In this document: positions 2,748 to 61,195 of the stretch, in pieces
Numbering within the stretch: position 1 is the stretch's first letter
Layout: every line of letters starts with the position of its first letter
From: an uncultured delta proteobacterium
GTDB taxonomy: Bacteria > Desulfobacterota > Binatia > Binatales > Binataceae
Assembly: GCA_963788205.1 (NCBI GenBank)
Contig: CAWBGG010000002.1
Coordinates: 449,988 to 513,987 of the forward strand
Direction of reading: 5' to 3'
Length of the DNA stretch: 64,000 nt
Notes under the pieces: generated by a model
The model's input: only the letters and a program-made list of their open reading frames with translations
What the model was told of the DNA's origin: nothing
The model's database searches: none
Made by a program: the position numbers and the translations under genes

Positions 2748-3971
2748 CTACTCGGCCTTCCATTGGACCGATTTGAGATCGATGCCTTCCTTGGCCATTT
2801 CGTACAGCGGCGACATCTCGCGCAGCCGCTTGACTTCCTTGGAGACCCGTTCGGTCACGAAATCGACTTCCTCTTCGGTGTTGAAGCGGCCCAAGCCGAA
2901 CCGGATTGAGCTGTGCGCCAACTCCTCATCGACACCGAGCGCGCGAATCACGTAAGACGGCTCCAGCGTGGCCGAAGTGCAGGCCGAGCCCGAGCTGACC
3001 GCGATGTCGTTGATGCCCATCAGGAGCGACTCACCCTCCACGTACGCGAAGCTCACGTTGAGATTGCCGGGCAAGCGTTCTGTTGGGTGGCCGTTCAAGT
3101 AGACCTCGTCGAGGCGCTCGAAAATCCCGGCTTGCAGCTTGTCGCGCAGCTCGATCAGGCGCCGGGTCTCGTCCGGCATTTCCCTGCCCGCGATTTCGCA
3201 GGCCGCTCCGAAGCCGACAATCCCGGTGACGTTGAGCGTGCCGGAGCGCATCCCGCGCTCGTGCCCACCGCCGTCCATCGTGGCCGTGAGCCGCACGCGC
3301 GGCCCTTTGGAGCGCACGTAGAGCGCGCCCACGCCCTTGGGACCATAAATCTTGTGCGCGCTCATCGACATCAGGTCGATTCCGGCCTTATCGACGTCAA
3401 TGGGGATCTTGCCGACGCCCTGGGTCGCGTCGCTGTGAAAGACGATTCCTTTCTCTTTGGCGATCTTGCCGATCTCCGCGATCCGATGGATCGTGCCGAT
3501 TTCGTTATTGGCGTACATGATCGAGATCAGCATGGTCTTGTCTGTGATCGCCTTGCGCACATCGTCGGGATCGACCATCCCGTACTTGTTGACCGGCAGA
3601 TAGGTGACGGTCGCCTTGCCCTGGCGCTCGAGCGCGCGGCAACTGTCGAGAATCGCCTTGTGCTCCGTGACGCAGGTGATGACGTGGTTGCCCTTGTCTT
3701 TGTAGAATTCGACCACGCCCTTGAGCGCCAGATTGTCCGACTCGGTCGCGCCGCTGGTGAAGACGACTTCCTTGGCCTTGGCGTGGATCAGAGCGGCGAT
3801 CTGCTCGCGCGCACGATCGACCGCCTCTTCCGCCGCCCATCCGAAGCTATGGTTGCGGCTGGCGGCATTGCCGAACTTCTCGGTGAAGTACGGCATCATC
3901 GCCTTGATCACCCGCGGATCGGCCGGGGTCGTGGCGTGATTGTCCATGTAAATCGGCAGCTTAACCATCAC
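2748..3971 (-). CDS. iscS: Cysteine desulfurase IscS
   Basis: 407 aa; SSGSACTS active-site loop; PLP-lysine region [10 protein letters not shown]; full-length class V aminotransferase fold. Confidence 0.9.
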
Positions 3972-12119: not shown

Positions 12120-12278
12120 CCCAACCTCAGCCTCCGCCGGACAGTATAGCGCGTCGCGGGCGGCGCGCCGCGCGTTTTTCCTTCAACTGCCGAGCGCTGT
12201 GCCGTTCCCCATAAAACGCGACGGGCCGGCACAAGGCCAGCCCGTCATCCTGAACTGAAGCTGGGATCGCCGCCGCGG

Positions 12279-12983: not shown

Positions 12984-13190
12984 GACAGTGTCTCAGTTTG
13001 AGAGCGCTCGAGAGTGGGGGCGAGCAGCGGGAGATCCGGGATTCCTCGCGCGGCAGCCACGCGCGGGAATGACAGAAAAAGCTTGTCCTTGTCATTCTCG
13101 CGCGTCTGCGTTGCCTGGCGCGCGAAGAATCCCGAATCCTTTCTTCCACCTGCCGACACTGCCTCCGAGGCCAAACTGAGACACTACCCG
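12984..13190. mobile_element. MITE-like element, copy 2, flanked by direct TCACTG (possible target-site duplication)
   Basis: Near-identical to 1018-1226; tcactg present on both sides (12978-12983 and 13191-13196). Confidence 0.6.
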
Positions 13191-13673
13191 TCACTGCTTG
13201 TATCCAAATCTGCGCAACATCGCGTGGCGCTCGGCGCGGTCCTTTTCTCCCTCCACGCCTTTGGGCGAGTCACCATCGATAACGCCGATCACCCCGCGTC
13301 CGGTTCCCTCGCAGGCGACGATCACCCGCACCGGATTCGCGGTCGCGCAGAAGATCGTGCACACCTCCGCGACCGACTTGATCTGGTTGAGCACGTTGAC
13401 CGGAAACGCATTACCCAGCATCACGACGAACAGATGGCCGGCGGCGATCGCCTGGGCGCAATCGACCGCCGATTGCTCGAGCTGCGGCTCGGTGCCCGTA
13501 TGGCGGATAAGGCACGGCCCCGAGGCCTCGCAGAACGCCGCGCCGAACTTGATGTTCGGCACCGCCTGCACCAGCGCCTCGTAGAGGTCCTCGACCGTCT
13601 TGATAAAATGGGCCTGGCCGATGATCACGTTCACATCGGCCGGCTTGCGTACTTCGATTGCCTTGAGTTCCAT
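13191..13673 (-). CDS. Adenosine-specific kinase-like protein (PF04008-like), start MELKAIEV
   Basis: Family-like segment IIGQAHFIKTVEDL...FVVMLGNAFPVNVLN; the track ORF extends to 13841 but the upstream part is likely untranslated. Confidence 0.5.
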   Translation of the reverse strand: MELKAIEVRKPADVNVIIGQAHFIKTVEDLYEALVQAVPNIKFGAAFCEASGPCLIRHTGTEPQLEQSAVDCAQAIAAGHLFVVMLGNAFPVNVLNQIKSVAEVCTIFCATANPVRVIVACEGTGRGVIGVIDGDSPKGVEGEKDRAERHAMLRRFGYKQ

Positions 13674-13761
13674 CTCCAGTTTCTCCCTTCCGGTGCCGCT
13701 ACTCTCAGCATTAGCGCGAAAATGATATGAAAGAGGATAGGCGAGTGAAACCTCTGCGGCG

Positions 13762-14343
13762 GTGAGGTGGATGAGCATGGGCGGCCAGTTGAGTACTGTG
13801 GCGGGTACCGTGGGGGGCGCGGTGGCGGACGGGATCGACAAGCGGATGCCGGCGTATTTCTACCGGCTCTCGGCGGCGCGCCAGCGCGCATATCTCAAAA
13901 GCGACGCTATCGACCGGCTCCCGTTGACTGCCGACCCGGTCACCGTCGATGCGGCGCGCATCCTGATGCGCGCGCTCGAAGGCGGCAGGCTGGCGACGGT
14001 CAACGAAGCGGCGCGCGGCCTGCTCGCAGACATCTGCCGGCGATTGGCCGTCCCGATGGTGCGAATCGAGGTGCGCGAGGTGCGGCCGCACAATGCGCGC
14101 GGCGAGCTGCACGGAATCTTCTACCTGCGCCCGCCCGCGATCGTGCTCTGGATGCGCACCGCGCAGCGCCACGACGTGGTCAAGCCCAAGACCTTCATCC
14201 GCACCCTGGCGCACGAAGCCGGCCACTACCTGGACTATGCCCTGCTGAAGCTCGGCGACTCCTTCCACACCAGCGGCTTCTTCAAGCGGGAATCGTACCT
14301 GGTGCGCACGCTCTATCCCTCCGAACCGAGTCGTTCGGCGTAG
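13762..14343 (+). CDS. Hypothetical protein with an HExxH zinc-metallopeptidase-like motif (HEAGHYLD)
   Basis: Single HExxH motif near the C-terminus; start uncertain. Confidence 0.4.
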   Translation: MRWMSMGGQLSTVAGTVGGAVADGIDKRMPAYFYRLSAARQRAYLKSDAIDRLPLTADPVTVDAARILMRALEGGRLATVNEAARGLLADICRRLAVPMVRIEVREVRPHNARGELHGIFYLRPPAIVLWMRTAQRHDVVKPKTFIRTLAHEAGHYLDYALLKLGDSFHTSGFFKRESYLVRTLYPSEPSRSA

Positions 14344-14432
14344 GTTCCCCTGGAGAGACTCGGGACACGCTATCGCGGCGCTCGGACACGGGAAAGGAAA
14401 AAGGATCATCCGGTCGCAGACGCCCTCTTGGC

Positions 14433-14858
14433 GGCTGTCATTCTCGCGCGTCTGCTTTGCCTGGCGCGCGAAGAATCCCGGATCTCTGCTCCGTTGAGCC
14501 GTTTCCATGGGTGACCGGACCTACTCCGTATACATCATGAGCAGCATGTCCCGTACGCTCTACACCGGCGTCACCAACGACCTCGATCGCCGCGTTTTCG
14601 AGCACAAGGAAGGGCGGCCCGGTTCCTTCACGGCCCGATACCAGGTGAACCGCTTGGTCTATTTCGAGGAGTTCGGAGACATCGGCGAAGCGATCGCGCG
14701 CGAGAAGGAGATCAAGAAGATGACGCGGAGGGGGAAGGTCGAGCTGATCGAGTCGACGAACCCTGAGTGGCGGGACCTGAGCGAGGAGTAGAAAGGCAGC
14801 AGCCAGAGTCCGGGATTCTTCGCGCGCCAGGCAAAGCAGACGCGCGAGAATGACAGCC
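14433..14858. mobile_element. GIY-YIG cassette: a small GIY-YIG nuclease gene flanked by perfect 49-bp inverted hairpin repeats (14433-14485 and 14805-14858)
   Basis: GGCTGTCATTCTCGCGCGTCTGCTTTGCCTGGCGCGCGAAGAATCCCGGA and its exact reverse complement flank the ORF. The same units occur in the MITEs and at 29631-29690. Confidence 0.65.
14507..14791 (+). CDS. GIY-YIG nuclease family protein (UPF0213 / YhbQ-like, 94 aa)
   Basis: YSVYIM...LYTGVTNDLDRRVFEHKEG...LVYFEEF...REKEIKKMTRRGK. Confidence 0.75.
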   Translation: MGDRTYSVYIMSSMSRTLYTGVTNDLDRRVFEHKEGRPGSFTARYQVNRLVYFEEFGDIGEAIAREKEIKKMTRRGKVELIESTNPEWRDLSEE

Positions 14859-14950
14859 GTAAAAGAGGCGTGTTCTACCAGGAGCCTCAAATCCCGCCTT
14901 CTCGGCTTCGCGCGCGAGTTCGACCGTAAGGCACTCATCGATGAGGAACC

Positions 14951-15580
14951 TCACGTCGCTGCGGCGTCCCGCAAGCGGACGCGAACCGGACGGCCGCTAA
15001 GACGACCCCGCCAGAGTTGTTTGCGCGGCCGGCCGCGCAGCGGATGGGCGCCGGCATAGAGGGGCGCGAGGCGAATCATTTCATCAGTGAGCCGTGGATA
15101 TCCGCGACGCAATGTTTCCGGCGTCTCGCCCTGGCTCAGAAGCTCCGCGATCATGTGAATCGGGATGCGTGTGCCGCGAAAGACGGGAACGCCTCCAAGA
15201 ACCTCCGGGTCAGCGCTGGCCAGCCCTTCGGCCCGCCGCAGATCTTTAATACGCTGCGCCAGGTCCCGCCAGGACGGCCGCAGATCCAAAGTGAGCGCGC
15301 CGACCGCAACGCTCCGGACGCCTTCCGCCAACGCAGCGCTAATCGCTTTGAAAAGCTTTTGGCGGAACGAAGGAGTCGTGTCACTGACAAGCTCACGCTC
15401 AAGCGACAAATAAATCAGAGCGGGTTCGTCAACCAGACGAAGTGATTTCTCCCCGCGCGTGCGTCTGACATGAGCCGCGATGGTTTTCTTGTCTATTGCG
15501 TTATTGACCGCCTTAACGGGCAGGCGAGTAAGCACCGCCGCCTCGGCTGCGGTGAAAAGTGGCTGTTCTCGAGTCGTCAT
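14951..15580 (-). CDS. DUF433 domain protein (antitoxin-like C-terminal domain)
   Basis: C-terminal GGVPVFRGTRIPIHMIAELLSQGETPETLRRGYPRLTDEMI. Confidence 0.6.
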   Translation of the reverse strand: MTTREQPLFTAAEAAVLTRLPVKAVNNAIDKKTIAAHVRRTRGEKSLRLVDEPALIYLSLERELVSDTTPSFRQKLFKAISAALAEGVRSVAVGALTLDLRPSWRDLAQRIKDLRRAEGLASADPEVLGGVPVFRGTRIPIHMIAELLSQGETPETLRRGYPRLTDEMIRLAPLYAGAHPLRGRPRKQLWRGRLSGRPVRVRLRDAAAT

Positions 15581-15868
15581 GGTGGACCCTTATATATTCT
15601 CCAGTTGGAGAAGATATATGACATGTCAGCCACTTTCAAGGGCGAAAGCTGCAGGATGAATCCGGGGCTTGCCAGTCCGCGAAGTCTGCCCGACAATTAA
15701 ATGATGGGATATGCGAGACCTTCGGCAGATCAACATGATCGGGGCGAGTGTGACCGCTGACGCGGCGCGGGCTTTCTCGGCACATCCACACCAGAGGCCA
15801 GACCTGACGGTGTAGACTCTCCGCAGCGTAGAATTCGCTACCATGATTACGAACCGATAGAGACCCTC

Positions 15869-16732
15869 GTGTTAGGTACCATGTTGAACGCGGGAAACTT
15901 TGCCAATGGGAGATCTATGATTTCAGCGCTGACTGGCATCGAGAGCGAGGTGATTCTCCTGAAGGCCGTGACGGGGATCATCGATTCAATGGTGAATTCC
16001 GAAATACTCGAGCTGGCGGGTCACGATCCCGACAGCCACATCGGGTTCCCCACGTGTACTCAACAAAAGCTTTTTTATGTACTGCTCGCTGATTTCCTTT
16101 CCGTCACGGACCGGCGAGCGCCTATTTCTCAAACGACGTATCTTCGCGGCTTGAGGTCCATCACGGACCGCCCAGCGTTCAACGCTGGAAGCTCGATTGA
16201 GCCGCTAAGGCTTGCAACTGCGGAGTTTGTGGGTTGGCTCGAAGAGGAGGCCGAAGTCGCCACTTACCTTCGGCCAATTAGGGTCGAGGCGAATCTGAAG
16301 CTGTCGCGGCTGGCCGTCATTAAGATGTGCGGCGACATCTCGAAACACAACTTCTTGAGAGCGGTAGGAGTTGCTGGCAAATTGAGGGACGCTCTTGCTA
16401 GGAGCGGAGTATCGGTGTCGGAGGCGGACGCCTTAGCGGGTCTGCCTGACTTCTATGAGCGCTTCCATAATGACGTCCTGAATTACCACAGCAGCACAAT
16501 TGCCGAATTCCTCAACAACATCCGCTGGGCTATCTGCGAATACGTGCAACCCGAGCTTCACCGGAGTTTCATAAGAGAAGGCAGCGACCCGCCAACATAC
16601 AGGTACAGTTATCCCGATGGGGTAAGCGCGCCGTTTGCGAAGGAGTGCTATTGGAATCTTATGGATGAAATCAGGCAGTCTCCATACATGAGGAGGTTTC
16701 GCGTCACGAAATATTTGAAGTTGAGGTATTAG
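15869..16732 (+). CDS. Orphan hypothetical protein (287 aa) in a lower-GC islet
   Basis: Long ORF; AT-richer codon usage than neighbours; no recognisable motif. Confidence 0.45.
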   Translation: MLGTMLNAGNFANGRSMISALTGIESEVILLKAVTGIIDSMVNSEILELAGHDPDSHIGFPTCTQQKLFYVLLADFLSVTDRRAPISQTTYLRGLRSITDRPAFNAGSSIEPLRLATAEFVGWLEEEAEVATYLRPIRVEANLKLSRLAVIKMCGDISKHNFLRAVGVAGKLRDALARSGVSVSEADALAGLPDFYERFHNDVLNYHSSTIAEFLNNIRWAICEYVQPELHRSFIREGSDPPTYRYSYPDGVSAPFAKECYWNLMDEIRQSPYMRRFRVTKYLKLRY

Positions 16733-16970
16733 CTAAACCCCCTCCGCAGCGGAGAGCCGTCAGAACCGGGACTCCGCCATCCACCCAGCGGTCAATTTGC
16801 CTTTCTCGGAGAGGAATCGCTCCGTGTAGATTCCCTCGCTGCGCTCGGAATGACAGAGCTCCTTCTTTCCTGTTCCGGGCCATACGCGACGGATCGACGC
16901 TCAGCAATTTTCAAACCGGCCCCCGCGCTGGGGACTTTGACGCGGGTAGGCGCACCGATATCATCGGCAA

Positions 16971-25997: not shown

Positions 25998-28900
25998 CTA
26001 CTTGCCGCTGCCGCTCACCAGAATCCCGACCGAAGGATGCACCGGGTCATCGCTGGTGATCGTGAGCGTGGCGTTTTCCAGCTGGGTCGACAGCGGCGCG
26101 AACGTGACGCTGATCGAGGCCGAGTGTCCCGACCGTAGCGTGAAGGTCGAGCCGCCGCCGGCGGTCACCTGGAACGGTACGCTGAGCGTGCCCACCTGGC
26201 CGTGCAGTACGCCCGGTCCGAGATTGACCACGCTGAAGGTCCTGGTCGAGTGTTTTCCGATCTTGACCTTGCCGAAGTCGACCAGGTGTGGCGTCGCGAT
26301 CTTGCCCGGGTTGGCCGTGCCCTCGACCTGGACCTCGGCCAGCGGGTTCTTCGGATCGCTGCTCGTGAGCTCAATTTCCCCCGCAAACGAGCCCGCCGCA
26401 GTCGGTGCGAGCACCAGCTTTACCCGCTCGGCGTGACCTTTCGCCAGACTGAAGGAACCGCCCCCGCTCACCACGCTGATCGCCACGGGGAGAGAACTTG
26501 CGTTGACGCTGCCGGTCAGAGTGCCCTTGCCAACATTCCTGATCACGAAGGACAGTACCCGCGTGGTATCGGTCCCGACGGTTCCGAAGTTGAGGATTCG
26601 GCTCGATAGCTGGAGTTTGCCGCTGGGTTGCGGCGTCGGCGCAGGAGTTGGGCTCGGCGTAGGAGTCGGCGATGGCGTGGGCGACGGGGTCGGCGTTGGT
26701 GTCGGGGAGGCGGTCGGCACCGCCGATGGTGTCGGAGATGGGGTCGGCACCGGCGATGGTGTCGGAGAAGCGGTCAGCACCGCTGATGGGGTCGGACCTG
26801 GAATCGGCGCCAGCGGCTGGTCGAATTTCAGAAGGCGGTTATTGGGCAGGTCCGCGACAAACAGGTCGCCGGACGGGTCAACTGCGACACCAGTTGGATC
26901 GCAAAGCCCGTCGGCGCTCGGCACGGGATCGCCGCTGACGCCGTCGCTGCAAAGTTTGGCCGTATAGCTGCCGCCCTGTCCGAACACGTCGTCAGCGATC
27001 GTGTTACCCGAGCCAGCGATCGGAGTCGCGGTGAGCGGCGTGTTAAATTCGAGCACGCGATTGTTGCCGGTGTCAGCGATATAGACGTTGCTGGCCAGAT
27101 CGAGCGCGACCGCTCCGGGGCTGCAGAGGCCGGCAGAGCTGGTGGTGCACGTGTTGCCGTCGAGGCTTCCGCCCTGGCCAAACACGATCGCGGCGGTGGT
27201 ATTGGGCGCAGCGGGATTCGCGAGCGGCGCGGTGTATTCCAGCACGCGATTGTTCATTTGGTCGGCAACGTAGAGATTGTTCGCCGAGTCGACCGCGAGC
27301 CCTTGCGGGCCGCACAGGCTATCGGGACCCAACCCGTTCGCGTCGCCCGCGGCTACGCCGTCATTGCACGAATCGAGACTGAAACTGCCGTGCTGGCCGA
27401 ATACCGTGTCGGGCTTGGTATCGCCCGAGCCCGCCACGCTGGTCTTGGCCAGCGGGGTGTTGTATTCCAGCACGCGGTTGTTGATCTGATCGGCGGCATA
27501 CAGATCGCCCGCCAAATCGAGCGCGACACCAGTGGGCGCGCACAGGCCGGCGGAACTGGTCTTGGGCGCTTTAGAGATCGCGGAGCTCGTACAGGTGTTG
27601 GCAGTGAAGCTGCCGCCTTGGCCGAAGACGAGGGTGGCCGCTTGGCCGACGAGCAGGCCGCTGTTGAACGGCGAGCTGAATTCCAGCACGCGGTTGTTGC
27701 CGGTGTCGGCGACATAAAGGTTGCCGGCCGCATCGACCGCGACGCCGCCGCCGACCTTCTGGGCGTTCTTGCCGGTCCCCGAGCACAGACTGTTCAATCC
27801 CGCGCTGCAAAAGCAGAGGCCGGTCTGGGTGGTGGTGCAATACGATGAGTAGGCGTCGGGTTGCCCGATCACGATATCGGCGGACAGCGCATTGGTCACG
27901 GCCGCGGCGCTCTTCCATCCCAGCACGCGATTGTTCAGCACATCGGCGAGATAGAGATGGCCGCTTGAATCGACCGCTGCTCCGGCGAAAAGCGTGCCGT
28001 AAGCGGTCGTCAGCGCGATCGCCTGGGCGCCGCCGAAGTTGACGATATTGTGCGCCAAGTCTATCTGCCCCAGGGCGAGGTCGGCGGTCTGGTCGCCGGA
28101 GCCGGGCACGCCGCTCTTCATCAGCGGCGTGTAGAATTCCAGCGCGCGATTATTGGCCGTGTCCGCGACCAGGAGGTCGCCGCCGGGATCGGCCACAACA
28201 CCGGCAGGGGCACAAAGGCCGGCGGAGTTCGGCGCGGGATCGCCGTTCGCGCCGTCGCTACAAGCAGTCGCGCTGAAGCTGCCTTTCTGGCCGAACACGT
28301 TGTCGGCAATCGAGTCACCGGAGCCCGGCACATTGATGTTATTGGTCAGCGGCGTGTTGTATTCGAGCACGCGATTGTTGGCCGTATCCGCAACGTAGAG
28401 ATTGTCTGCGGCATCCAGCGCGACTCCCTGCGGCCCGCACAGGCCCGCATTCGAGGTGCCGCACACGGTGGCGAATGCGCCCTGCTGGCCGAACACCGCG
28501 TCGGCGTTGGTGTCGCCTGATCCGCTCACTGCGGTTTTGGCGAGCGGGGTGTCGTATTCCAGTACGCGATTGTTGCCGCTGTCGGAGATGTACAGGTTTC
28601 CCATCGAGTCGGCCGCGACGCCCGTGGGAGAGCACAGGCTGTCGGCGCCGACCCCATTGCCGTCACCCAGGTTCGTCCCGTCGTTGCATCCGGTGGTGCT
28701 GAAGCTGCCGTCCTGGCCAAACACCAGGTCGGCGATAGTATCGCCAGAGCCGGGCGCCATGGTCACGGACAGTGGCGTGTTGTATTCGAGCACCCGATTG
28801 TTCCCGCCGTCGGCGACGTAAAGGTTGTTCGCCGGGTCGACCGCGAGTCCGGCGATATTGAGGAACGGCGGAGAAGGCTGCACAAACGTAGTGTTGGGCT

Positions 28901-29408
28901 GTTGCCCGACGGTCAAGCCGCTGCCGAACGGCGCATTGTACTCGAATACCTGCACGCCGGTCGCGACGTAGAGGTTGCCCATCCCGTCGACCGCAACCGA
29001 ATTGGGCGCACAGAGACCGTTGCACGAGCTCGAGGACGCGTCGGCCTGGCCGATTACGATATTTCCGGCCGCGCCGTTAGCCAGCGCAGCGACGCTTTTC
29101 CATCCGATGACGCGATTGTTGGTGGTGTCCGCGACGAAAAGATGGCCCTGAGAGTCGATCGCCACGGCTTGGGGGTTTTGCAGCGCCCCCAAGCCGCCGA
29201 AGTTCAGCATGTTGTGGGAAAAATCGACCTGGCCCAGCACCACGTCAGCGGTGGTATCCCCGACGCTGCCCGGCGTGCCCGCGATCGCGACGATCGTAAT
29301 CAGCGCGATACTCGCGCCTCCGGCCACCAATCCCCCAAGTCGCGCACGACGACCGAATGACGCGGCGTACAGAGACATCATGCGTGCCACCTCCCACCCC
29401 CGTAACAA
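25998..29408 (-). CDS. Large secreted NHL-repeat beta-propeller protein (1136 aa) with a Pro/Thr/Ser linker and two C-terminal Ig-like (ASH / choice-of-anchor-D-like) domains
   Basis: At least 15 repeats of the L(Y/F)VAD..NNRVLE(F/Y) type; signal peptide; PTPSP linker; Ig-like tail similar to the tails of the Kelch and S53 proteins. Confidence 0.8.
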
Positions 29409-29479: not shown

Positions 29480-29590
29480 AAACGAGACGAGCAGGGGGTC
29501 GGGCGTGGATGGTCAGGCCAGGATCGAAAGCGCGAGGGCGTCGAGAACGCGTCCGGCGGGGTCCAGCTTGTGGGCGGAACGACGTAGGCG
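29480..29590. repeat. Direct repeat A: copy of the last ~100 bp of kdkA (att-like), left boundary of an island
   Basis: About 90% identical to 33690-33800; would encode ...KLDPAGR.LDA.ALSILA. Confidence 0.6.
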
Positions 29591-29630
29591 ATCTGAGACC
29601 TGCATTTTGGCGGGAATCCTGAGCGCTGAC

Positions 29631-29690
29631 GTCATTCTCCTGCGTCTGTGTTGTCTGGCGCGCGAGGAATCCCGAGTCTTTTCTGCTCGC
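29631..29690. repeat. Solo hairpin unit of the MITE / GIY-YIG repeat family
   Basis: gtcattctcctgcgtctgtgttgtctggcgcgcgaggaatcccg. Confidence 0.5.
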
Positions 29691-33382: not shown

Positions 33383-33525
33383 GGCGACCCTCACCGCGAG
33401 CGCGCTTGACGCGCGCTCGCCGCCTCTCCCTGGTCAGGGAGAGGCAGTTAAGATCGCGTCGCGATTTCTGGTCTGCGCCTCTCCCTGAGCAGGGAGAGGC
33501 CGGCGCTGCGCCGGGTGAGGGTTGC
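33383..33525. repeat. Nested palindrome cluster (REP-like): outer IR CGACCCTCACCG / CGGGTGAGGGT enclosing three or four GC-rich hairpins (GCCTCTCCCTG-N-CAGGGAGAGGC, twice)
   Basis: Palindromes read directly; about 200 bp downstream of the kdkA stop, at the end of the lipid A operon. Confidence 0.5.
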
Positions 33526-33689
33526 CTGCTGCTGCCCAGAGCAATTCGCCAGCTCCGGGCCCTTGGGCTTCGCGCAGGGTAAACTCCCCGGGCGCCTGTC
33601 CCGAGTCTATCGAGGGCAATCTACGCGGAGTGATTCGTCTTCGCCACACGCCCGTCACTTCAAGCTGACCCACTACTCAGATGCGCGGA

Positions 33690-33800
33690 GGTTGGCCCAG
33701 ACGAGGGGAGCAGCTGGCCGGGCGACGATGGTCAGGCCAGAATCGAGAGCGCGCGGGCGTCGAGGAAGCGTCCGGCGGGGTCCAGCTTGCGGGCGGAACG
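33690..33800. repeat. Direct repeat B: authentic 3' end of kdkA, partner of 29480-29590
   Basis: Sequence identity to repeat A. Confidence 0.6.
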
Positions 33801-34490
33801 GCGTAGGCGATCCGAGTTCCGGCGGCAAAGTCCTGGCGCCAGTGGCGGGTCGAACAGTTGTGCCTTGTCTAGGTCTAGGATAATCACGGCGAAGCTTTCG
33901 CCGATCTTGGTGACGAACAGGTTGTGCAGATTCAAGTCGGCGTGAAACAGGCCGCGCGCCTGCATGGTCTGAATCGCTAGACGGGCCTGCTCCAGCACAT
34001 GGCTTCTTACCAGCGGGTCCTGGTCGGTGCGCAACAACTCCCACAGCGTCATGCCAGGAATCGCGCGGGTCAGAAAGAAGCCGCGGTACAGCATCGGCGC
34101 CACCCACTCGACCATCGCGCCCATCGGGTCGGCGACCGGGATGCCCCTCCGCCGCGCCTCGAGCGTTACTTTAAGTTCGCGCAGCGGCCTTGGATTGACG
34201 CCGACATAGAGGCCGGTGAAGACCATTCGCATCAGTCCGCCGCGGCGGGCCGCGCGCGCGACCATCTCGGGCGCGCCCGCTATCGCGAGGCGATAGGCGC
34301 TGGCGCGATTACCCTCGCCGGCGCGCGGCGAGGCGGTCAGGTCGCCGAGCGCGGCCACGATCGCAGGGGCGAGGGCCGCCAGCGATTTGCGCAGATACAG
34401 CACCCGCCTGCCGAACCTGAGTGTCGTCAGGTCGGGATCCGGAGCCGGGGCGGCGCGCGGGATCATCGCGGGCGAAATCGGGCGAGTCAC
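33732..34490 (-). CDS. kdkA: 3-deoxy-D-manno-octulosonic acid (Kdo) kinase-like protein (Kdo/WaaP kinase family)
   Basis: Family-typical FHADLNLHNLFV...ILDLD; location downstream of waaA-lpxK. Confidence 0.7.
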   Translation of the reverse strand: MTRPISPAMIPRAAPAPDPDLTTLRFGRRVLYLRKSLAALAPAIVAALGDLTASPRAGEGNRASAYRLAIAGAPEMVARAARRGGLMRMVFTGLYVGVNPRPLRELKVTLEARRRGIPVADPMGAMVEWVAPMLYRGFFLTRAIPGMTLWELLRTDQDPLVRSHVLEQARLAIQTMQARGLFHADLNLHNLFVTKIGESFAVIILDLDKAQLFDPPLAPGLCRRNSDRLRRSARKLDPAGRFLDARALSILA

Positions 34491-45703: not shown

Positions 45704-47080
45704 GTGCAGTCTGGGCACCCTAAACTTGCAGGCACAGTGTCGCTCGTCGTTAGCCTCCTGCTGTTTGGGACGGCCCTGGCAGGCTCGAGCGCTTCGGACG
45801 CTCCTGATAAAGCCGCGCAAGGCAAACTGACCGTCGCGCCGAGATCGCTCGCCTTCCCCGTAACCCAAGTGGGCACGTCCAGCCAAATGTCGGCGAGTCT
45901 CAGCAATGCCAGCGCGGTCGCAATCGACATAACCAAAATCACCGCCGCCCCCACCGGAGCCGGATTCTCGGCCGCCCAAACTTGCTTGGGTACTCTGGCC
46001 AGCGGCGATGCTTGCGACGTCGCGGTGACTTTCAGCCCCACCGCTGCCAAGGGGGCCAAGGTTACCGGCACGCTGACAATCAAGGATAACGCGTCGAACA
46101 GCCCTCAGACTGTACGCCTTTCCGGGACGAAGTTGGAACCTTTCACGGCTCTCACCGCCAGGATGAGAACCGCTCGTGCCGGTCACACGGCGACGCTTCT
46201 CCCTGACGGCCAGGTCCTCTTGACCGGTGGGTTCGATAATATCTTCGGCGCTGCTCTCAACACCGCGGAGCTGTACGACCCCACGGCCAATACCTTCACG
46301 GCCCTCAGCGCAAGGATGAGGGCCGCGCGTAATTTCCACACGGCGACCCTGCTCCTCAGCGGCCAGGTCCTCATTACTGGCGGGTCGCCTGATCCCAACG
46401 GCAACGGTCTCCGGACTGCGGAGTTCTACGACCCCGAGACCCAGACCTTCACCGCCCTCACCGCCAAATTGACGACTGGTCGTGGTGGTCACACGGCGAC
46501 CCTGCTCGCCGACGGCCAAGTCCTCTTGACCGGAGGGTTTGATAACGACGGCTCTCTCAACAGCGCAGAGTTGTACGACCCCGAGGCCAACACCTTCACG
46601 GCCCTCAGCGCCACGATGACGACTGCTCGTGAGGACCACACAGCGACCCTGCTCCCCAACGGCCTGGTCCTCCTGACCGGGGGCGCGGACCGTGTCCACA
46701 AGCAAAACACTATACTCAAAAGTGCAGAAGTGTATGACCCCGTTGAACAGACCTTCACGGCCCTGACTGCCAGGATGACAACAGCTCGTGACGGCCACAC
46801 CGCGACCCTACTCCCCAGCGGCCAGGTCCTCTTGACCGGCGGGGGGCGAGTAGTCTCCCCGAGCGCCCTCACCGTTCTCAACACTGCGGAATTGTACGAC
46901 CCCGAGGCGCAGGCCTTCACGGCCCTGACCGCCACGATGACAACTCCTCGCGTTTTGCACGCGGCGACCCTGCTCCCGAACGGCCAGGTCCTCTTGACCG
47001 GCGGGGGGTATGGCCCCGCCGAGACCTCCTTCACCGTTCTCAACACCGCAGAGTTGTACGATCCGTCGGCAGGCGAATAA
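45704..47080 (+). CDS. Secreted Kelch-repeat beta-propeller protein with an N-terminal Ig-like (ASH-like) domain; GTG start at 45704
   Basis: Signal peptide VSLVVSLLLFGTALAGSSA; six or seven repeats of AELYDP...FTAL...AR..HTATLL.GQVLLTGG. Confidence 0.7.
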   Translation: MQSGHPKLAGTVSLVVSLLLFGTALAGSSASDAPDKAAQGKLTVAPRSLAFPVTQVGTSSQMSASLSNASAVAIDITKITAAPTGAGFSAAQTCLGTLASGDACDVAVTFSPTAAKGAKVTGTLTIKDNASNSPQTVRLSGTKLEPFTALTARMRTARAGHTATLLPDGQVLLTGGFDNIFGAALNTAELYDPTANTFTALSARMRAARNFHTATLLLSGQVLITGGSPDPNGNGLRTAEFYDPETQTFTALTAKLTTGRGGHTATLLADGQVLLTGGFDNDGSLNSAELYDPEANTFTALSATMTTAREDHTATLLPNGLVLLTGGADRVHKQNTILKSAEVYDPVEQTFTALTARMTTARDGHTATLLPSGQVLLTGGGRVVSPSALTVLNTAELYDPEAQAFTALTATMTTPRVLHAATLLPNGQVLLTGGGYGPAETSFTVLNTAELYDPSAGE

Positions 47081-48684: not shown

Positions 48685-51600
48685 GTGCGCTGCGATTCGA
48701 TTACCGCGCGAGCGCTGAGGAGCGCCCGGCTGTGCGCCTCCGCGGCGGCCTTGATCTGTCTGCTGGCGGACGCGGCGAGCGGGCAAACCGTCAGGCTGCG
48801 CGGGAATGCGCCGCACGCAGTCGGCAGCCTGGCTTCGACCCTCGAAGCTCCGGCGGCAAACCGCTCGATTTGCAAGTGATCCTTGCGCCGCGCGATCGCG
48901 CCGGCCTCGCCACGCTGCTGCACGAGCAGCAGGATCCGGGCTCGCCGCGGTATCATAGATGGCTCACGCCGGCGGAGTTCGCCGCCCGCTTCGGGCCCCG
49001 CGAGGCCGACTTCAAGGCGGTCGAGGCCTGGCTGCTAGGGCAGGGGCTCACCATCACTTCCGCCGATTTGCCGCGCCGCTACATCCGCGCCGCCGGCTCG
49101 GTGTTGCAGGCCGAGCGCGCTTTTCAGGTCACGATCGTGGCGTCTGCCGACGGACGATCGTTCGGTAATCTGCAGGAGCCGTTGATTCCCGCCCGCTTCG
49201 ACGGAGTTATCGCGCACGTCGAAGGACTGGACAATCTAAGCGCCAGCATTGCCGCCTTCCAGACGCGTCCGGACCGGGCGCATCTTGAGCCCGTCGCAGG
49301 TGCCGGCCACGCGCCCGTGATGCCGTCGTTCGAGCTGGCCGCGCTGTTCGAGGATGCGGGAGAAATCGCTCGCCCCGCCAAAACGCAGCCCGAGGTTCTC
49401 TTCGGCGGTGTCGCCGCCTTCGGACCGTCTGACCTGTACACGTTTTACGACGAATCGCCGGTGCTGAGCGGCGGAATCACCGGCAAGAACTCGGATTGCA
49501 TCGCGCTGGTCGAGGACTCCAACTACCTGACCAGCTCGGTCGCGCTGTTCGACAGCACGTTCCTTTCCAGCGACGCCGCCCCGAGCATCACCAACCGTTT
49601 TCCGACCGCCGATCCCGGCCAGACCGGCGACGAGGCCGAGGCGCTGCTGGATATCGAATGGGCCCATGCGGTCGCGCCCGCGACGCCGATTCGCGTCTAC
49701 ATCGGCAATCCGTCCGACTACATAGTCGATCCCCTTTCCGACGCGATCGGGCAGGCGGTCGGCGACAATGCCTGCTCGGCAATCAGTATCAGCTTTTCCA
49801 TTTGCGGCGCATCCGACAGCTATTTCACCGGGGTGCTCGATCCGCTCTTCGCGCGGGCCGCTGCGCAGGGACAATCGGTGTTCGTCTCCGCCGGCGACTC
49901 CGGCGCGGCCGGCGTGGTTTTCGATCCGAGCACCTATTCGTGCGCGGTGGGCACGAGCCAGAACGTAAACGAGATGTCGGCCGACCCGTGGGTGACCTCG
50001 GTCGGCGGCACCGAGTTCACTCCCGACTACAATTCATCTCACAACGACGTAGGCTCGGTCGCCGAGCAGGTCTGGGACGAGGCCGGCTACGCGACCGGCG
50101 GCGGCTCCAGCAAGGTTTTCTCCAAGCCCGGCTTTCAGAGCGGCGTTGACCCTTCCGTCACTCAACGCGAGGTCCCCGATGTCGCGATGATGGCGTCGCC
50201 CGACCTGCCGGGCGTCTTCATGGGGATGGACTCCGATGGCGCGGCGGCGATCGGATGCTGTTACGGGGGAACGAGCCTCTCGGCACCGATGTGGGCGGGA
50301 ATTACTGAGCTGATCCAGCAGGCGGCGAGCGAGCGGCAGGGCACGCTCAACGCGCGCATCTACCAACTCGGCGCGGCGGGCAGTCCCGCGCTGCGCGACG
50401 TCACCTCGGGCTCGAACTCTTTCAACGGCGTGACGGGTTTCACGGCCGTAACCGGCTACGATCAGGCCACCGGATGGGGCTCGCCTGATATCGCGCGGTT
50501 GATCGCGGCCCTGCCGACCGTCACGCCGACGCCGTCACCAACTCCGAGCGCGACTCCGACGGCGACCCCCACCAATACGCCGACACCCACGCCGTCACCA
50601 TCGCCCTCGGCAACTCCTCCGCCGACGCCTACGAATACGCCGACGCCGAGTCAGACTCCGAGCCCGACGCCATCGCCAACGCCTTCGCCTTCGCCAACGC
50701 CGACTCCGACCGCGACTGCGGCGCCGACATTTACGCCGGCTCCGACCGCGACGCCGACACCCACACCGACCGCCACGACGGCTCCTACCGCAACCCCGAC
50801 GCCTACGCCGGCGCCGACCGCGACCGCTTCGCCGACTGCGACTGCGCCGGCGACTTTCACGCCGGTTCCTACAGCCACTCCAAGCGCAGCGCCGACCGCC
50901 AGCGCAGCGCCGACCCCGACGCCCACCGCCACGCTCGCAGCGACGCCGACCCCCACGCCGACTGCGATTGCGGCTCCGACCGTGAGTCCGACGCCGACCG
51001 CGACTCCGATCGCGACGGCGTCTTCAACCCCGTCACCCGCGCCAACCCCGTCGCCCACGCCCATACCGAGCAGGACTGCGACCCAAACCCCAATATCGAC
51101 CCCGACCCCGAGCCCAACGCCGACCGCGGCCGTTGCTCCCTCGGCAACCCCAACGCTTTCACCAAGCCCGACCGCCAGTCCGACCCCGATTCCCGCGCCG
51201 ACGCCCAGTCGAATTCCAACGCCGACCCCGAGCCCAACGCCGACCACGGCCGTCGCTCCCACATCGACACCAACGCTTTCGTCAACCCCGACTGCCAGTC
51301 CGACCCCGATTCCCGCGCCGACACCCAGTCGAACTCCGACGCCGACCCCCAGCCCAACGCCGACCGCGGCCGTTGCTCCCACCTCGACCCCAACGCTTTC
51401 ACCAACCCCGACCGCCAGTCCGACCCCGATTCCTGCGTCGACACCCAGCCGAGCTCCAACCCCGACCCCGATTCGCGCCCCGACGCCGAGTCAGACTCCG
51501 AGCCCGACTCCGACACCGACGGCGGCTCCTACGGCGACCGCTATGCCCACAACCGTCGTGACGCCTACGCCGACCGTCACGCCGACTCCAACCGCGACCG

Positions 51601-52821
51601 CAGCTCCTACCGCGACCGCGACGGCCACGCTCGCAGCGACACCCACAGCAGCGCCGACTCAAAGCGCAACGCCGACGCCGACTCCCAGTCCCGTTCCGAC
51701 CGTGACTCCATCGCCAACCGCCAGCCAGGCTCCGACCGCCAGCTTGACGGCGACTGCCACGCCGAGCGCAGCGCCAACCGCGTCATCGACTCCCACTCCG
51801 ACGCTCGCGCCGACGCCGACGCCCACGGCGATACCCACTCAGACCGCGACACCCGCGCCAACTTTCACGCCAGTGGCGACCGCGACACCCGCGCCGACGG
51901 CGACGATCGCGGTCGAGTCCACGCCGACTATCGCGCCGCCGGCCGCGACGGCGACTACGCTCCCGACGGCGACGCCGACGCCGGTGCCGCCGCTGGTCAT
52001 CAGGGTCAATTCGCCTACCGACACCGACTACGGCCTCGATGAGCCCGTGACGGCGAACTACTCATGCTCGGGCGGGAACGGCACGGTGACGGCTTGCGCC
52101 GGTCCGGTTACCAGTGGCGGCGCGATTGATACTTCCGCGGTCGGCGCCAAGAGTTTCACCGTGACCGCCAAGGACAGTCTGGGCGACGTCGCGGTTGAGG
52201 CGGTGGACTACTCGATCCTCCCGATCTCGACGATCAGCCTTTCCTTTGCCCCGCAACTGCTCGGTACCACCAGCGCGGCCCAGGACGTGGCATTGATCAA
52301 CACACAAGCCAGCGCGATGGAGCTGTCGCGTATCAGCGCCGGTGGCGATTTCATCCAAACCAACACATGTCCGCGGGCGTTGGTGGCGGGCGGCCGATGC
52401 GACATCGCGGTCAGGTTCGCGCCGAAAGCCGCCGGAGCCCGATCCGGCGATCTGACGATCGTCGAGGGCGGCAACTCGATGGTCGTCAGCTTAAACGGCG
52501 TCGGCGCCGGGGCGCAGCTTTCGCCGTCGAGCCTGAGCTTCAAGTCGCGGACGGTTGGCGCCGCCAGCGCCGCGAAGATCGTGACGCTGGCCAACAAGCA
52601 GGGCACGCAGCTTGATATCGCCGGGATCGCGGTCAGCGGCGATTTCGTCGAGACCAACAACTGCGGCGCCGCGCTGCGGCCGGATTCGAGCTGTCACATT
52701 TCGGTGAGTTTCGCGCCTGGCCGTGGCCGGAAAAAAGCTTTCCGGCGCGCTGACCGTCAGCGCCGATTCGGCGATCGCGCCCCCGAGCGTCAGCCTCATC
52801 GGCACGGCCACGCAGAACTGA
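48685..52821 (+). CDS. Secreted S53 (sedolisin/kumamolisin-like) peptidase with a ~500-aa Pro/Thr/Ala/Ser linker and C-terminal Ig-like domains; frame breaks near 48850-48858 (A-run) and 52727-52736 (A6 run); true stop at 52819-52821
   Basis: Signal peptide in the 48685 frame; pro-domain [18 protein letters not shown]; catalytic region [12 protein letters not shown]. The corrected C-terminus [33 protein letters not shown] resembles the NHL protein tail. Confidence 0.75.
50500..52000. repeat. Low-complexity PT(S/A)-codon repeat DNA (linker of the S53 protein)
   Basis: Reiterated ccgac(g/c)cc / ccgag(c/t)cc units. It generates spurious ORFs in every frame on both strands (50651-51382, 50869-51516, 51133-51561). 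Confidence 0.8.
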
Positions 52822-58605: not shown

Positions 58606-59116
58606 TCAAAAGAACGAGCGGCCGGCCACTACGTCGGCCACCTTGATCTTGGCCGTGCCGCGATCCTCTTGATGCGCGAGCGCGACCGGCACGCACGAGG
58701 CCACGCCCGCCGTCATCTGGTCGATCTTGTAACGGTTGCCGCACACCCGGCAGATCAGGCTCGTTGCCGGAGATCGCGTAACCCTTGTGATACGAGTAGC
58801 AGCGGCGGCAGACGTCGAACACCGAACGCACCTGTCCGTCACTGCCGCGCGCCAGCAGAAAGCGCAGCCGGTTTCCCGCCGCGTCGTCGTAGCCGTACTT
58901 GCGGGCGCTGCCAGGTGCGAGCGTGCTCAGGTCGATACTCAACACGTCGCGGCCGGTGACCATCGTGTATCGTTCGCCCGAAATGCTGAACGCGAGCGCG
59001 GCCGCGGCGATGAGCGCGCCGGCGAACAGCTTTCCTCTGACGTGCTTCATGTCTTCCAGTCGATACTCCGCGCGCGGCGGCGGATCAATCTCGATGTGAG
59101 AGCTACCCCTGACCAA
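58606..59116 (-). CDS. DUF2318-like Fe-S/membrane protein (FtrD-like); frame break near 58750-58760
   Basis: VFDVCRRCYSYHKGYAISGNEP in one frame continues as ICRVCGNRYKIDQMTAGVASCVPVALAH in the next. Confidence 0.45.
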
Positions 59117-59180
59117 CGAGGGCGTCGGCGAGGCGCCGATACCTTCGCGAGGCGATCAGCCATGCGCTTAAAACGGTCAG
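59075..59180. repeat. ~100-bp repeat shared by the 3' ends of the multicopper oxidase and nicO genes (copy 1)
   Basis: About 88% identical to 61090-61195; encodes the shared tail LIA(S/W)R(R/K)YRRLADA(L/I)VGQ and about 30 bp past the stop. Confidence 0.6.
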
Positions 59181-61089: not shown

Positions 61090-61195
61090 GATCAATATCA
61101 ATCTCGATGTGACAGCTACTCCTGACCAACAATCGCGTCGGCGAGGCGCCGATACTTTCGCCAGGCGATCAGCCATGCGAACGTTATCAGGGCCA
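61090..61195. repeat. ~100-bp repeat (copy 2)
   Basis: See 59075-59180. Confidence 0.6.

Follow-up and report, generated by a model that had tools for sequence, protein, structure and literature searches.

An Ssn-like GIY-YIG nuclease gene between perfect inverted hairpin repeats in an uncultured member of the Binatia

Introduction

The Ssn family (Chenal et al., Nat Commun 2025, PMC11893778) comprises single-domain GIY-YIG proteins of CDD cd10448 (GIY-YIG_unchar_3), and a survey of the regions around the genes of SsnA homologues found at least one hairpin repeat in 71% of regions and both sides of the gene flanked in 42% (PMC11893778). Here we describe a small GIY-YIG nuclease gene, very probably a member of this family, which lies between inverted hairpin repeats in the DNA of an uncultured bacterium belonging to the Binatia. 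The stretch which was analysed, hereafter the window, is 64,000 nt long (GenBank assembly GCA_963788205.1, contig CAWBGG010000002.1, positions 449,988 to 513,987), and all coordinates are those of the window unless a comparison locus (L followed by a number) is named. We refer to the gene as ssn, to the repeats on its two sides as arms and to the whole as the cassette.

In Neisseria meningitidis SsnA is a protein of 94 aa (PMC11893778). The repeat in Neisseria is the NTS, CGTCATTCCCGCGMAVGCGGGAATCYRG, and a degenerate “Ssn-related motif” (SRM) is used elsewhere (PMC11893778). SsnA binds to the NTS solely in the form of single-stranded DNA (ssDNA) and cuts a few nt 5′ of it, leaving double-stranded DNA (dsDNA), RNA and the opposite strand uncut; the three nt 5′ of the palindrome govern cleavage, the C just 3′ of the palindrome governs binding, the hairpin loop is dispensable, and each of the substitutions Y6A, Y17A and E64A abolishes cutting (PMC11893778). 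Three further Ssn homologues cut their own SRM, bringing to four the enzymes for which ssDNA-only, strand-specific 5′ cleavage has been found, and SsnA has been found to modulate natural transformation, lowering transformation by NTS-flanked DNA (PMC11893778).

The same authors likened the NTS-ssnA-NTS arrangement to insertion sequences, to IS200/IS605 and to the transposases associated with repetitive extragenic palindromes (REPs) and bacterial interspersed mosaic elements (BIMEs), and left mobility as a hypothesis (PMC11893778). In our literature search we found no later paper which tests the mobility of Ssn cassettes. A preliminary description of the window, made from its letters alone, had compared the locus to REP-associated tyrosine transposase (RAYT) systems and knew of no GIY-YIG equivalent; the arrangement had in fact already been published as the Ssn/NTS-SRM system, with the RAYT analogy included (PMC11893778). 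Our analysis extends the Ssn/SRM system to an uncultured soil lineage, the Binatia, while the layout itself was already described. What is new here is an SRM variant which the published pattern misses, arms which are perfect and face outward, hints of mobility and decay, and a MITE (miniature inverted-repeat transposable element) which carries pairs of SRMs.

Results and discussion

Identity of the nuclease

The locus can be read as an Ssn-SRM module, in which a small GIY-YIG endonuclease gene is flanked by inverted copies of its cognate hairpin; from the sequence comparisons below, we give this reading a probability of roughly 0.85. The gene (14507-14791, + strand) is assigned by a Pfam match and by alignment to SsnA, and its product is a predicted single-domain GIY-YIG nuclease of 94 aa. 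GIY-YIG (PF01541) was the sole Pfam domain found (E = 1.7e−13, residues 6-75), and the length of the protein is equal to that of meningococcal SsnA and below the 150 aa which bound the single-domain proteins of the Ssn family. The SsnA sequence used for comparison was the gonococcal orthologue (94 aa, with Y6, Y17 and E64 as published) and not the N. meningitidis protein itself. In pairwise blastp the window protein was 45% identical to this orthologue over 86 aa (E = 3e−25), which lies, as measured against the gonococcal sequence, well inside the homology threshold of E < 1e−10 used for the family (PMC11893778), and tblastn against PLSDB (7.3 Gb) matched a N. gonorrhoeae chromosome (E = 4e−16). 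Residues Y9, Y19 and E66 of the window protein align with the catalytic Y6, Y17 and E64 of SsnA; among 25 relatives Y19 was invariant and Y9 and E66 were nearly so.

The protein had been labelled UPF0213/YhbQ-like in the preliminary description, which turned out to be imprecise. Proteins of that type share the stand-alone GIY-YIG domain of about 95–107 aa, and two UPF0213 proteins, BH0048 (PDB 1zg2, E = 1.7e−8) and EF2693 (PDB 1ywl, E = 2e−5), are the closest solved structures by sequence. However, comparison of these E values with the 3e−25 obtained for SsnA shows the window protein to be closer to SsnA than to members of the YhbQ/UPF0213 group, which forms a separate CDD family (PMC11893778). 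No NCBIfam model matched the window protein. A homologue search returned 3267 matches, and the few which carried an organism name were mostly metagenome-assembled genomes of Candidatus Binatia/Binataceae. The gonococcal sequence (L168; N. gonorrhoeae NZ_CP119140.1, 1880784-1884041) comes from a 2.17-Mb chromosome which is filed as a plasmid in PLSDB and in which ssnA is unannotated; the ssnA open reading frame (ORF) there is surrounded by 9 canonical NTS copies within 3.2 kb, in alternating orientations.

Structure of the arms

That the GIY-YIG gene lies between exact inverted hairpin repeats, as first described, was confirmed. The left arm (14432-14482, +) and the right arm (14809-14859, −) are exact reverse complements of one another, with their GTCAT ends facing outward to the left and to the right respectively. 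The perfect identity reported earlier stands, although the arms are 51 nt long rather than 49 bp and their positions had been off by 1–4 nt. Within the arms are two SRM/NTS-like units, identified by their fold and by the NTS consensus, at 14437-14477 (+) and, as its mirror image, at 14814-14854 (−), each with the structure GTC-ATTCTCGCGCG-(14-nt loop)-CGCGCGAAGAAT-C. Folding bore out the description of the arms as imperfect palindromes with a 14-nt loop: each forms a GC-rich stem of 11–12 bp with one bulged A, at about −12 kcal/mol as DNA. The z-scores of these folds were only −1.2 to −2.0, which is modest by itself in such GC-rich DNA. The 43-nt unit, allowing up to 3 mismatches, had 4 matches in the window and 0 in 100 shuffles.

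The consensus of the units is GTC-ATTC(T/C)CGCGCG...CGCGCGA(A/G)GAAT-C-CCGG, in which both halves of the NTS and both of the experimentally critical positions are shared. The arms thus have GTC directly 5′ and C directly 3′ of the palindrome, as directional motifs of this type do, and directional units flank the gene on both sides here and likewise in relatives. The hairpin is a variant of the Neisseria NTS/SRM with a long stem and a long loop, and homology of the protein together with conservation of the motif makes the arms the probable cognate sites of an Ssn-type nuclease. We found no promoter or terminator signal at the arms, neither arm having a T-tract or a terminator call, and no Rfam match at the gathering threshold in positions 1-34000 of the window.

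Compared with the Neisseria Ssn/NTS system, the locus shares the 94-aa single-domain GIY-YIG protein with its catalytic Tyr/Tyr/Glu, directional hairpins on both sides, the sequence GTCATTC...GAATCC and dispersed intergenic copies which include inverted pairs. It differs in its 11–12 bp GC-rich stem with one bulged A and in its loops of 7 or 14 nt; in its outward-facing perfect 51-nt arms, where in Neisseria the nearest NTS copies face inward within an alternating array; in its number of units, about 8 in 64 kb against dense arrays; and in its uncultured Binatia-type host.

A weaker outer extension of the inverted repeat (14412-14431, with its partner at 14860-14879) lengthens the arms to 71 nt at 89% identity. 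By itself the score of this extension was reached in 58 of 500 shuffles and hence is not significant; there is partial similarity to the flanks of locus L005, and the extension may belong to the cassette. We also considered a cassette boundary identical with the Ssn cut site, as the perfect repeat reaches 5 nt beyond GTCAT, near the predicted cut, and rejected it: weak similarity runs about 20 nt beyond the perfect repeat, so the boundary cannot be fixed.

Conservation in relatives

A homologue scan with one genome per species gave 80 loci at 53–90% identity, from Binatia, Acidobacteriota, Chloroflexota, Gemmatimonadota, Bacteroidota and others, 75 of which had full flanks and were used for unit counts. 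When the upstream flank was aligned locally to the reverse-complemented downstream flank, arms of the form TGTCA(T/C)-stem-loop-stem-ATC were recovered repeatedly. Units were detected as GTC followed by a thermodynamically folded hairpin (ViennaRNA) and C, as a detector of perfect-stem hairpins misses true units owing to the bulged A. Because the ViennaRNA detector has a background of about 9 calls per 64 kb in the GC-rich window, it was restricted to a narrow flank test against the far-flank background of the same loci (> 1 kb from the gene), which was 0.018 units per flank per strand.

At least one GTC-hairpin-C unit was found within 200 bp of the gene in 54 of the 75 loci, and against this background the layout of a nuclease gene between inverted hairpins is genuine, family-wide and non-random. 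An outward-facing unit was present upstream in 35/75 loci and downstream in 32/75; both units faced outward in 22 of the 75 and both faced inward in 5. The stems co-vary between lineages (ATTCT/AGAAT, ATCC/GGAT, ACCC/GGGT and ATGC/GCAT), which supports selection on the hairpin. It had been proposed that the flanking repeats might prove to be an assembly duplication. However, four contigs from independent assemblies encode a homologous protein (P0002, 90% identical) between the genes for RidA and a pro-kumamolisin, and there too the gene is bracketed by the same inverted hairpins.

Presence, absence and decay

The cassettes with 90% aa identity (L001-L005) stand in a context other than that of the window. 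In five Binatia cassettes from different contexts, conservation is essentially limited to the stretch from TGTCATTC to GAATGACA (TGTCAT...ATGACA). Loop length varies among the Binatia cassettes: the window has 14 nt, L005 and L007 have 7 nt, and L008 has about 36 nt. In L008 a further GC-rich hairpin is nested within the loop of both arms (1995-2060 and the downstream arm), from which it appears that the loop can take insertions while the basal stem is kept.

Cassette-free sites were found for two contexts. The window cassette follows the genes for an adenosine-specific kinase (adk; 13191-13841, −), its neighbour, and n193 (13762-14343, +), a 193-aa protein with no Pfam match. Among 80 metagenomic loci which share the adk-n193 neighbourhood (L085-L164), the gene order adk-n193-p150-p404 is kept in at least 54 and none contains ssn. 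Synteny with the closest relative, L085 (n193 95% identical), ends at the n193 stop codon (14343), and neither p150 nor p404 is present anywhere in the 64-kb window; the cassette is therefore the first feature past a larger synteny break, and not a clean simple insertion. In the other context, the pro-kumamolisin and RidA genes are 30–122 bp apart without ssn in L165-L167, as opposed to a cassette-bearing gap of 519 bp in L001. The comparison of empty and filled sites which had been suggested at the outset was thus possible for two orthologous sites, but did not give an exact junction.

Locus L167 carries three remnants of the cassette (1152-1390, 2291-2381 and 2780-2848) in one intergenic region, at yet another site than RidA/pro-kumamolisin. 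They are an internally deleted mini-cassette, which retains both arms and, of the gene, about 8 codons of the start and about 15 of the end; half an arm joined to a piece of the 5′ part of the gene; and an inverted left end. An ORF with an Mrr_N domain (L167 1964-2323) is found between the cassette fragments. Several other loci have two ssn genes within 10 kb of one another.

Taken together, these comparisons suggest that the hairpin-ssn-hairpin cassette is gained, lost, duplicated and decayed as a unit, and so suggest mobility. The perfect arms indicate that the window copy is young or recently homogenised, because arm identity is not general in the family. Concerted evolution of the arms as a family rule was examined and rejected: it was convincing in four Binatia cassettes and failed over 25 cassettes. 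The modest and indirect support which this gives is for Ssn cassettes being, or having been, mobile.

Units outside the cassette

The preliminary description also reported elements of about 208 bp, each with an inverted pair of units. Two such elements are present, of 209 nt (1018-1226) and 207 nt (12984-13190), with 192/210 positions identical. The spacers between their units (from GAATGAC to GTCATTC) are 19 nt in copy 1 and 17 nt in copy 2, rather than 18. Copy 1 contains units at 1074-1107 (−, 7-nt loop) and 1127-1167 (+, 14-nt loop), and copy 2 at 13040-13073 (−) and 13091-13131 (+). In both copies the GTCAT ends face inward, which the earlier reader had missed, whereas at the ssn gene they face outward.

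Both elements end in terminal inverted repeats (TIRs) of their own, 13–18 nt long and unrelated to the hairpins (GGTAGTGTCTCAG / CTGAGACACTACC in copy 1). Copy 1 is flanked by GGATTTG and GAATTTG. Copy 2 has a 7-bp target-site duplication (TSD), GTCACTG, and L085 (1640-1670) has the empty site: it reads ...GACAAAC-CGC-GTTATTG-CTTGTATCC..., compared with ...GCGTCACTG-[element]-GTCACTG-CTTGTATCC... in the window. These elements are a bona fide MITE, and the TIRs, the 7-bp TSD and the empty site are the signature of a conventional transposase. The MITE TIR GTAGTGTCTCAG was found in none of the 168 loci compared, and no transposase bearing the MITE ends was seen. An origin of the MITE as a junction of two cassettes or as a fold-back of a cassette end was tried and rejected, as outside the hairpins its arms and spacer were no more like the cassette flanks than were shuffles.

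It follows that 4 of the roughly 8 units in the window ride inside a conventional MITE. The earlier view of the doublets as REPIN-like finds no support in the window, since REPINs are doublets without TIRs or a TSD of their own and both window doublets lie inside the MITE. Dispersed units and doublets do exist, however, and plain “− +” doublets with unrelated flanks and without those TIRs were found in two relatives (L131 and L152), although not in the window. These, together with the alternating Neisseria arrays, make doublet geometry a recurrent property of SRMs. At least one genome thus shows hairpins which have also spread as passengers of an ordinary MITE, and this calls for caution in crediting every SRM doublet to the nuclease.

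A solo unit had been reported at 29631. Sequence of this type is present (29631-29671, +, 89% identical to the MITE unit), but it is degenerate, with a disrupted stem which folds no better than shuffles (z = −0.3). A further SRM-type unit, GTCATTCCGAGCGCAGCGAGGGAATC, lies at 16829-16854 (−) and is of the GCGNAGC mini-hairpin type common in other phyla. It forms an outward pair, 14437 (+) ... 16854 (−), with the left arm unit, enclosing the ssn cassette and a segment with genes for a DUF433 protein (14951-15580, −; Pfam) and a 287-aa protein (orf287). Degenerate kin of this unit, with the 3′ extension (G)AATCTACRCGGAGCGATTC, were seen at 14327-14370 (−), where the copy overlaps the 3′ end of n193, at 33594-33637 (+) and in L085 at about 3340-3409 (−). 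A possible degenerate unit, GTCATCCTGAACTGAAGCTGGGATC, lies at 12244-12268 (+) between PBP1-type and GST genes.

Function and mobility

By homology with the characterised Ssn enzymes, the window protein would bind its motif solely where single-stranded DNA carries it as an extruded hairpin. Recognition would take in the palindrome and also its adjoining nucleotides, GTC on the 5′ side and C on the 3′ side, and that strand would be hydrolysed about 3–4 nt 5′ of GTCAT, while dsDNA, RNA and the complementary strand would be spared. If the Neisseria enzymology carries over, nicks are predicted at about 14432/14433 on the + strand and 14858/14859 on the − strand, which are the outer edges of the perfect repeat; as the arms are inverted and outward-facing, the two cuts would be on opposite strands. 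Insertion or rearrangement of the cassette is a step which we infer from the comparison with relatives. GIY-YIG enzymes are hydrolases which form no covalent intermediate with DNA, and mobility would therefore need host replication, repair or recombination in place of strand transfer by a transposase. Each new pair of an Ssn protein and its hairpin is also a candidate ssDNA-specific restriction reagent with a specificity of its own.

Several observations weigh against the reading of the locus as an Ssn-SRM module with a cassette that is gained and lost. The published strict SRM pattern, HGTCWYN(0-2)YYVSBRHN(0-5)WNVSBRGN(0-2)RNCYNB, had 0 matches in the 64-kb window. The window protein and its Binatia homologues are known from sequence alone. 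The geometry is not uniform in the family, as the NTS copies nearest to gonococcal ssnA face inward and the window arms outward. Identity of the two arms is no family rule either, since of 25 cassettes just 6 had arms which were more alike within the cassette than in the best match to another cassette. Finally, neither an exact cassette insertion junction nor a target-site duplication could be read in L085 or L165-L167, because the empty sites of L165-L167 are too diverged and synteny with L085 is lost at the n193 stop codon.

With regard to the first of these points, the pattern is missed for two reasons: loops of 7 or 14 nt are too long for its N(0-5), and the stem is bulged. When the loop was relaxed to 20 nt the pattern matched solely the units with 7-nt loops, at 1064-1108 and 13030-13074. 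The protein of L063 is 61% identical to that of the window, and its gene has units both upstream (three, in tandem) and downstream (one, inverted), every one of which matches the strict pattern and, except for the first base, the NTS consensus. As the units of such a relative match, we take the failure in the window to be a limit of the search string and not a sign of a different motif. The strict pattern serves for searching and does not define the motif biologically, and as it misses the long-stem, variable-loop variant, SRM censuses based on it undercount.

Given an Ssn-SRM module, the question is what the module does. One explanation, which we regard as possible if somewhat doubtful, is that it has a host function only: the enzyme would restrict or shape incoming or replicative ssDNA at SRM sites, the flanking hairpins would be relics or autoregulatory, and the cassette would be immobile. 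The lowered transformation by NTS-flanked DNA under SsnA (PMC11893778) speaks for such a function, although Binatia are not known to be naturally competent. The cassette lies exactly at a synteny breakpoint, consistent with SRMs as recombination sites, and the pair 14437 (+) ... 16854 (−) brackets other variable DNA of lower GC, with the DUF433 gene and an unassigned ORF. A similar picture is known from the neisserial intergenic mosaic elements and dRS3 arrays and from BIMEs, in which alternating hairpin repeats bracket variable segments at rearrangement points; the window differs in having isolated pairs only, one type of which is carried by a MITE that has terminal repeats of its own. Against this explanation, the arms have no promoter- or terminator-like signals, and the perfect 51-nt arms, the differing sites in close relatives and the decayed copies in L167 point to recent duplication or movement.

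A second explanation, which we consider unlikely on present evidence, is that the GIY-YIG enzyme itself mobilises the hairpin units, the doublets and its own cassette, as an analogue of RAYTs. The hypothesis was also raised by the authors who described Ssn, whose experiments show nuclease activity only (PMC11893778). The preliminary description had called the layout REP/RAYT-like, and in part this is so: as in REP/REPIN-RAYT systems, a nuclease gene is bracketed by inverted short palindromes which are also dispersed, often as inverted doublets, and recognition is of ssDNA hairpins. The enzyme, however, does not fit. Y1_Tnp (Pfam) is absent from the window protein, its GIY-YIG domain being its only one, and a RAYT is an HUH tyrosine transposase with a covalent intermediate and an unrelated fold, whereas the enzyme here is a GIY-YIG hydrolase, for which strand transfer of the HUH type would be impossible alone. 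In IS200/IS605 cleavage of ssDNA is likewise guided by hairpins and falls beside and not within them, but the hairpins of that system are subterminal, on the same strand and without inverted ends, and its TnpA is a Y1 enzyme; the window has exact inverted arms, a different catalytic domain and no Y1 gene, and its two predicted cuts on opposite strands are unlike the peel-and-paste of IS200/IS605.

Mobilisation by the enzyme gains from the family-wide bracket, from the presence/absence polymorphism of the cassette and from its decay products, which include an internally deleted miniature. The “− +” doublets of L131 and L152, which have no other TIRs, also fit, as “− +” is the topology to be expected if cassette ends were abutted. 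Against it, the MITE in which both window doublets lie has a 7-bp TSD and TIRs which are unrelated, and away from the hairpins its sequence bears no relation to the cassette. In its fullest form the proposal would make the cassette a mobile element which is autonomous and has a mechanism of a new type, in which a hairpin-guided hydrolytic single-strand nickase acts together with host replication or repair, and this too we hold to be improbable rather than probable. Such an element would have occupied at least 3 sites in related Binatia and decayed to mini-cassettes, solo units and “− +” doublets, with Ssn as a GIY-YIG counterpart of RAYTs, a speculative picture to which we give the same low credence. 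If it were true, SRM repeats would be non-autonomous progeny of Ssn cassettes. The empty sites, decayed copies and perfect arms are compatible with an autonomous element and are no proof of one.

A homing-endonuclease-like process, by which SRM-bearing sites would be nicked and the cassette copied in by gene conversion during repair, seems very improbable. Homing endonucleases of the free-standing GIY-YIG kind are known, conversion could use the 51-nt arms as its homology and their identity suggests conversion, but the empty sites have no SRM at the corresponding position (the RidA side in L165-L167; after n193 in L085) and the units in the doublets have the opposite orientation to those of the cassette. 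Moreover, dsDNA is not cut by Ssn (PMC11893778). Chance palindromes, transcription terminators or an assembly duplication can be set aside almost entirely, as, although the single-hairpin folds have modest z-scores in GC-rich DNA, the repeat was reproduced by no shuffle (0/100), the same bracket is seen in independent assemblies and across phyla, and the arms have no T-tract, terminator call or Rfam match.

Genomic surroundings

To the right of the cassette, an ORF on the − strand which starts at 14954 reads straight into the right arm. Its N-terminus is weakly DUF5615-like (positions 1-24 of 110, E = 0.098, below threshold), and the 31 codons at 14861-14954 (−) are a putative 5′ remnant of a DUF5615-type toxin gene. 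This suggests that the toxin partner of the DUF433 protein was truncated where the right arm of the cassette begins; the two genes would have made up a pair of toxin-antitoxin type. The region 15400-16900 has a GC content of 0.53–0.56, against 0.62–0.70 around it, and contains orf287 (15869-16732), which has no Pfam match; with the 16829-16854 (−) unit as its right bound, the region may represent a small island between hairpin units.

The window also contains other repeats. An unrelated hairpin repeat of the form GCCTCTCCCTG-NNN-CAGGGAGAGGC occurs at 33425-33450 and 33478-33503, is common to L085 (3472-3559, 85–91%) and probably represents a further REP-like family. Also seen were dispersed direct repeats of 116 nt (87% identical; 29482-29597 and 33701-33816) and 83 nt (92% identical; 59084-59166 and 61097-61179). 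Three long coding stretches are internally repetitive, at 26800-29250 (period of about 190–240 nt), 46100-47070 (about 150–160 nt) and 50500-51970 (about 120 nt, with many codons of Pro/Thr/Ala type), and these probably encode repeat-domain surface proteins.

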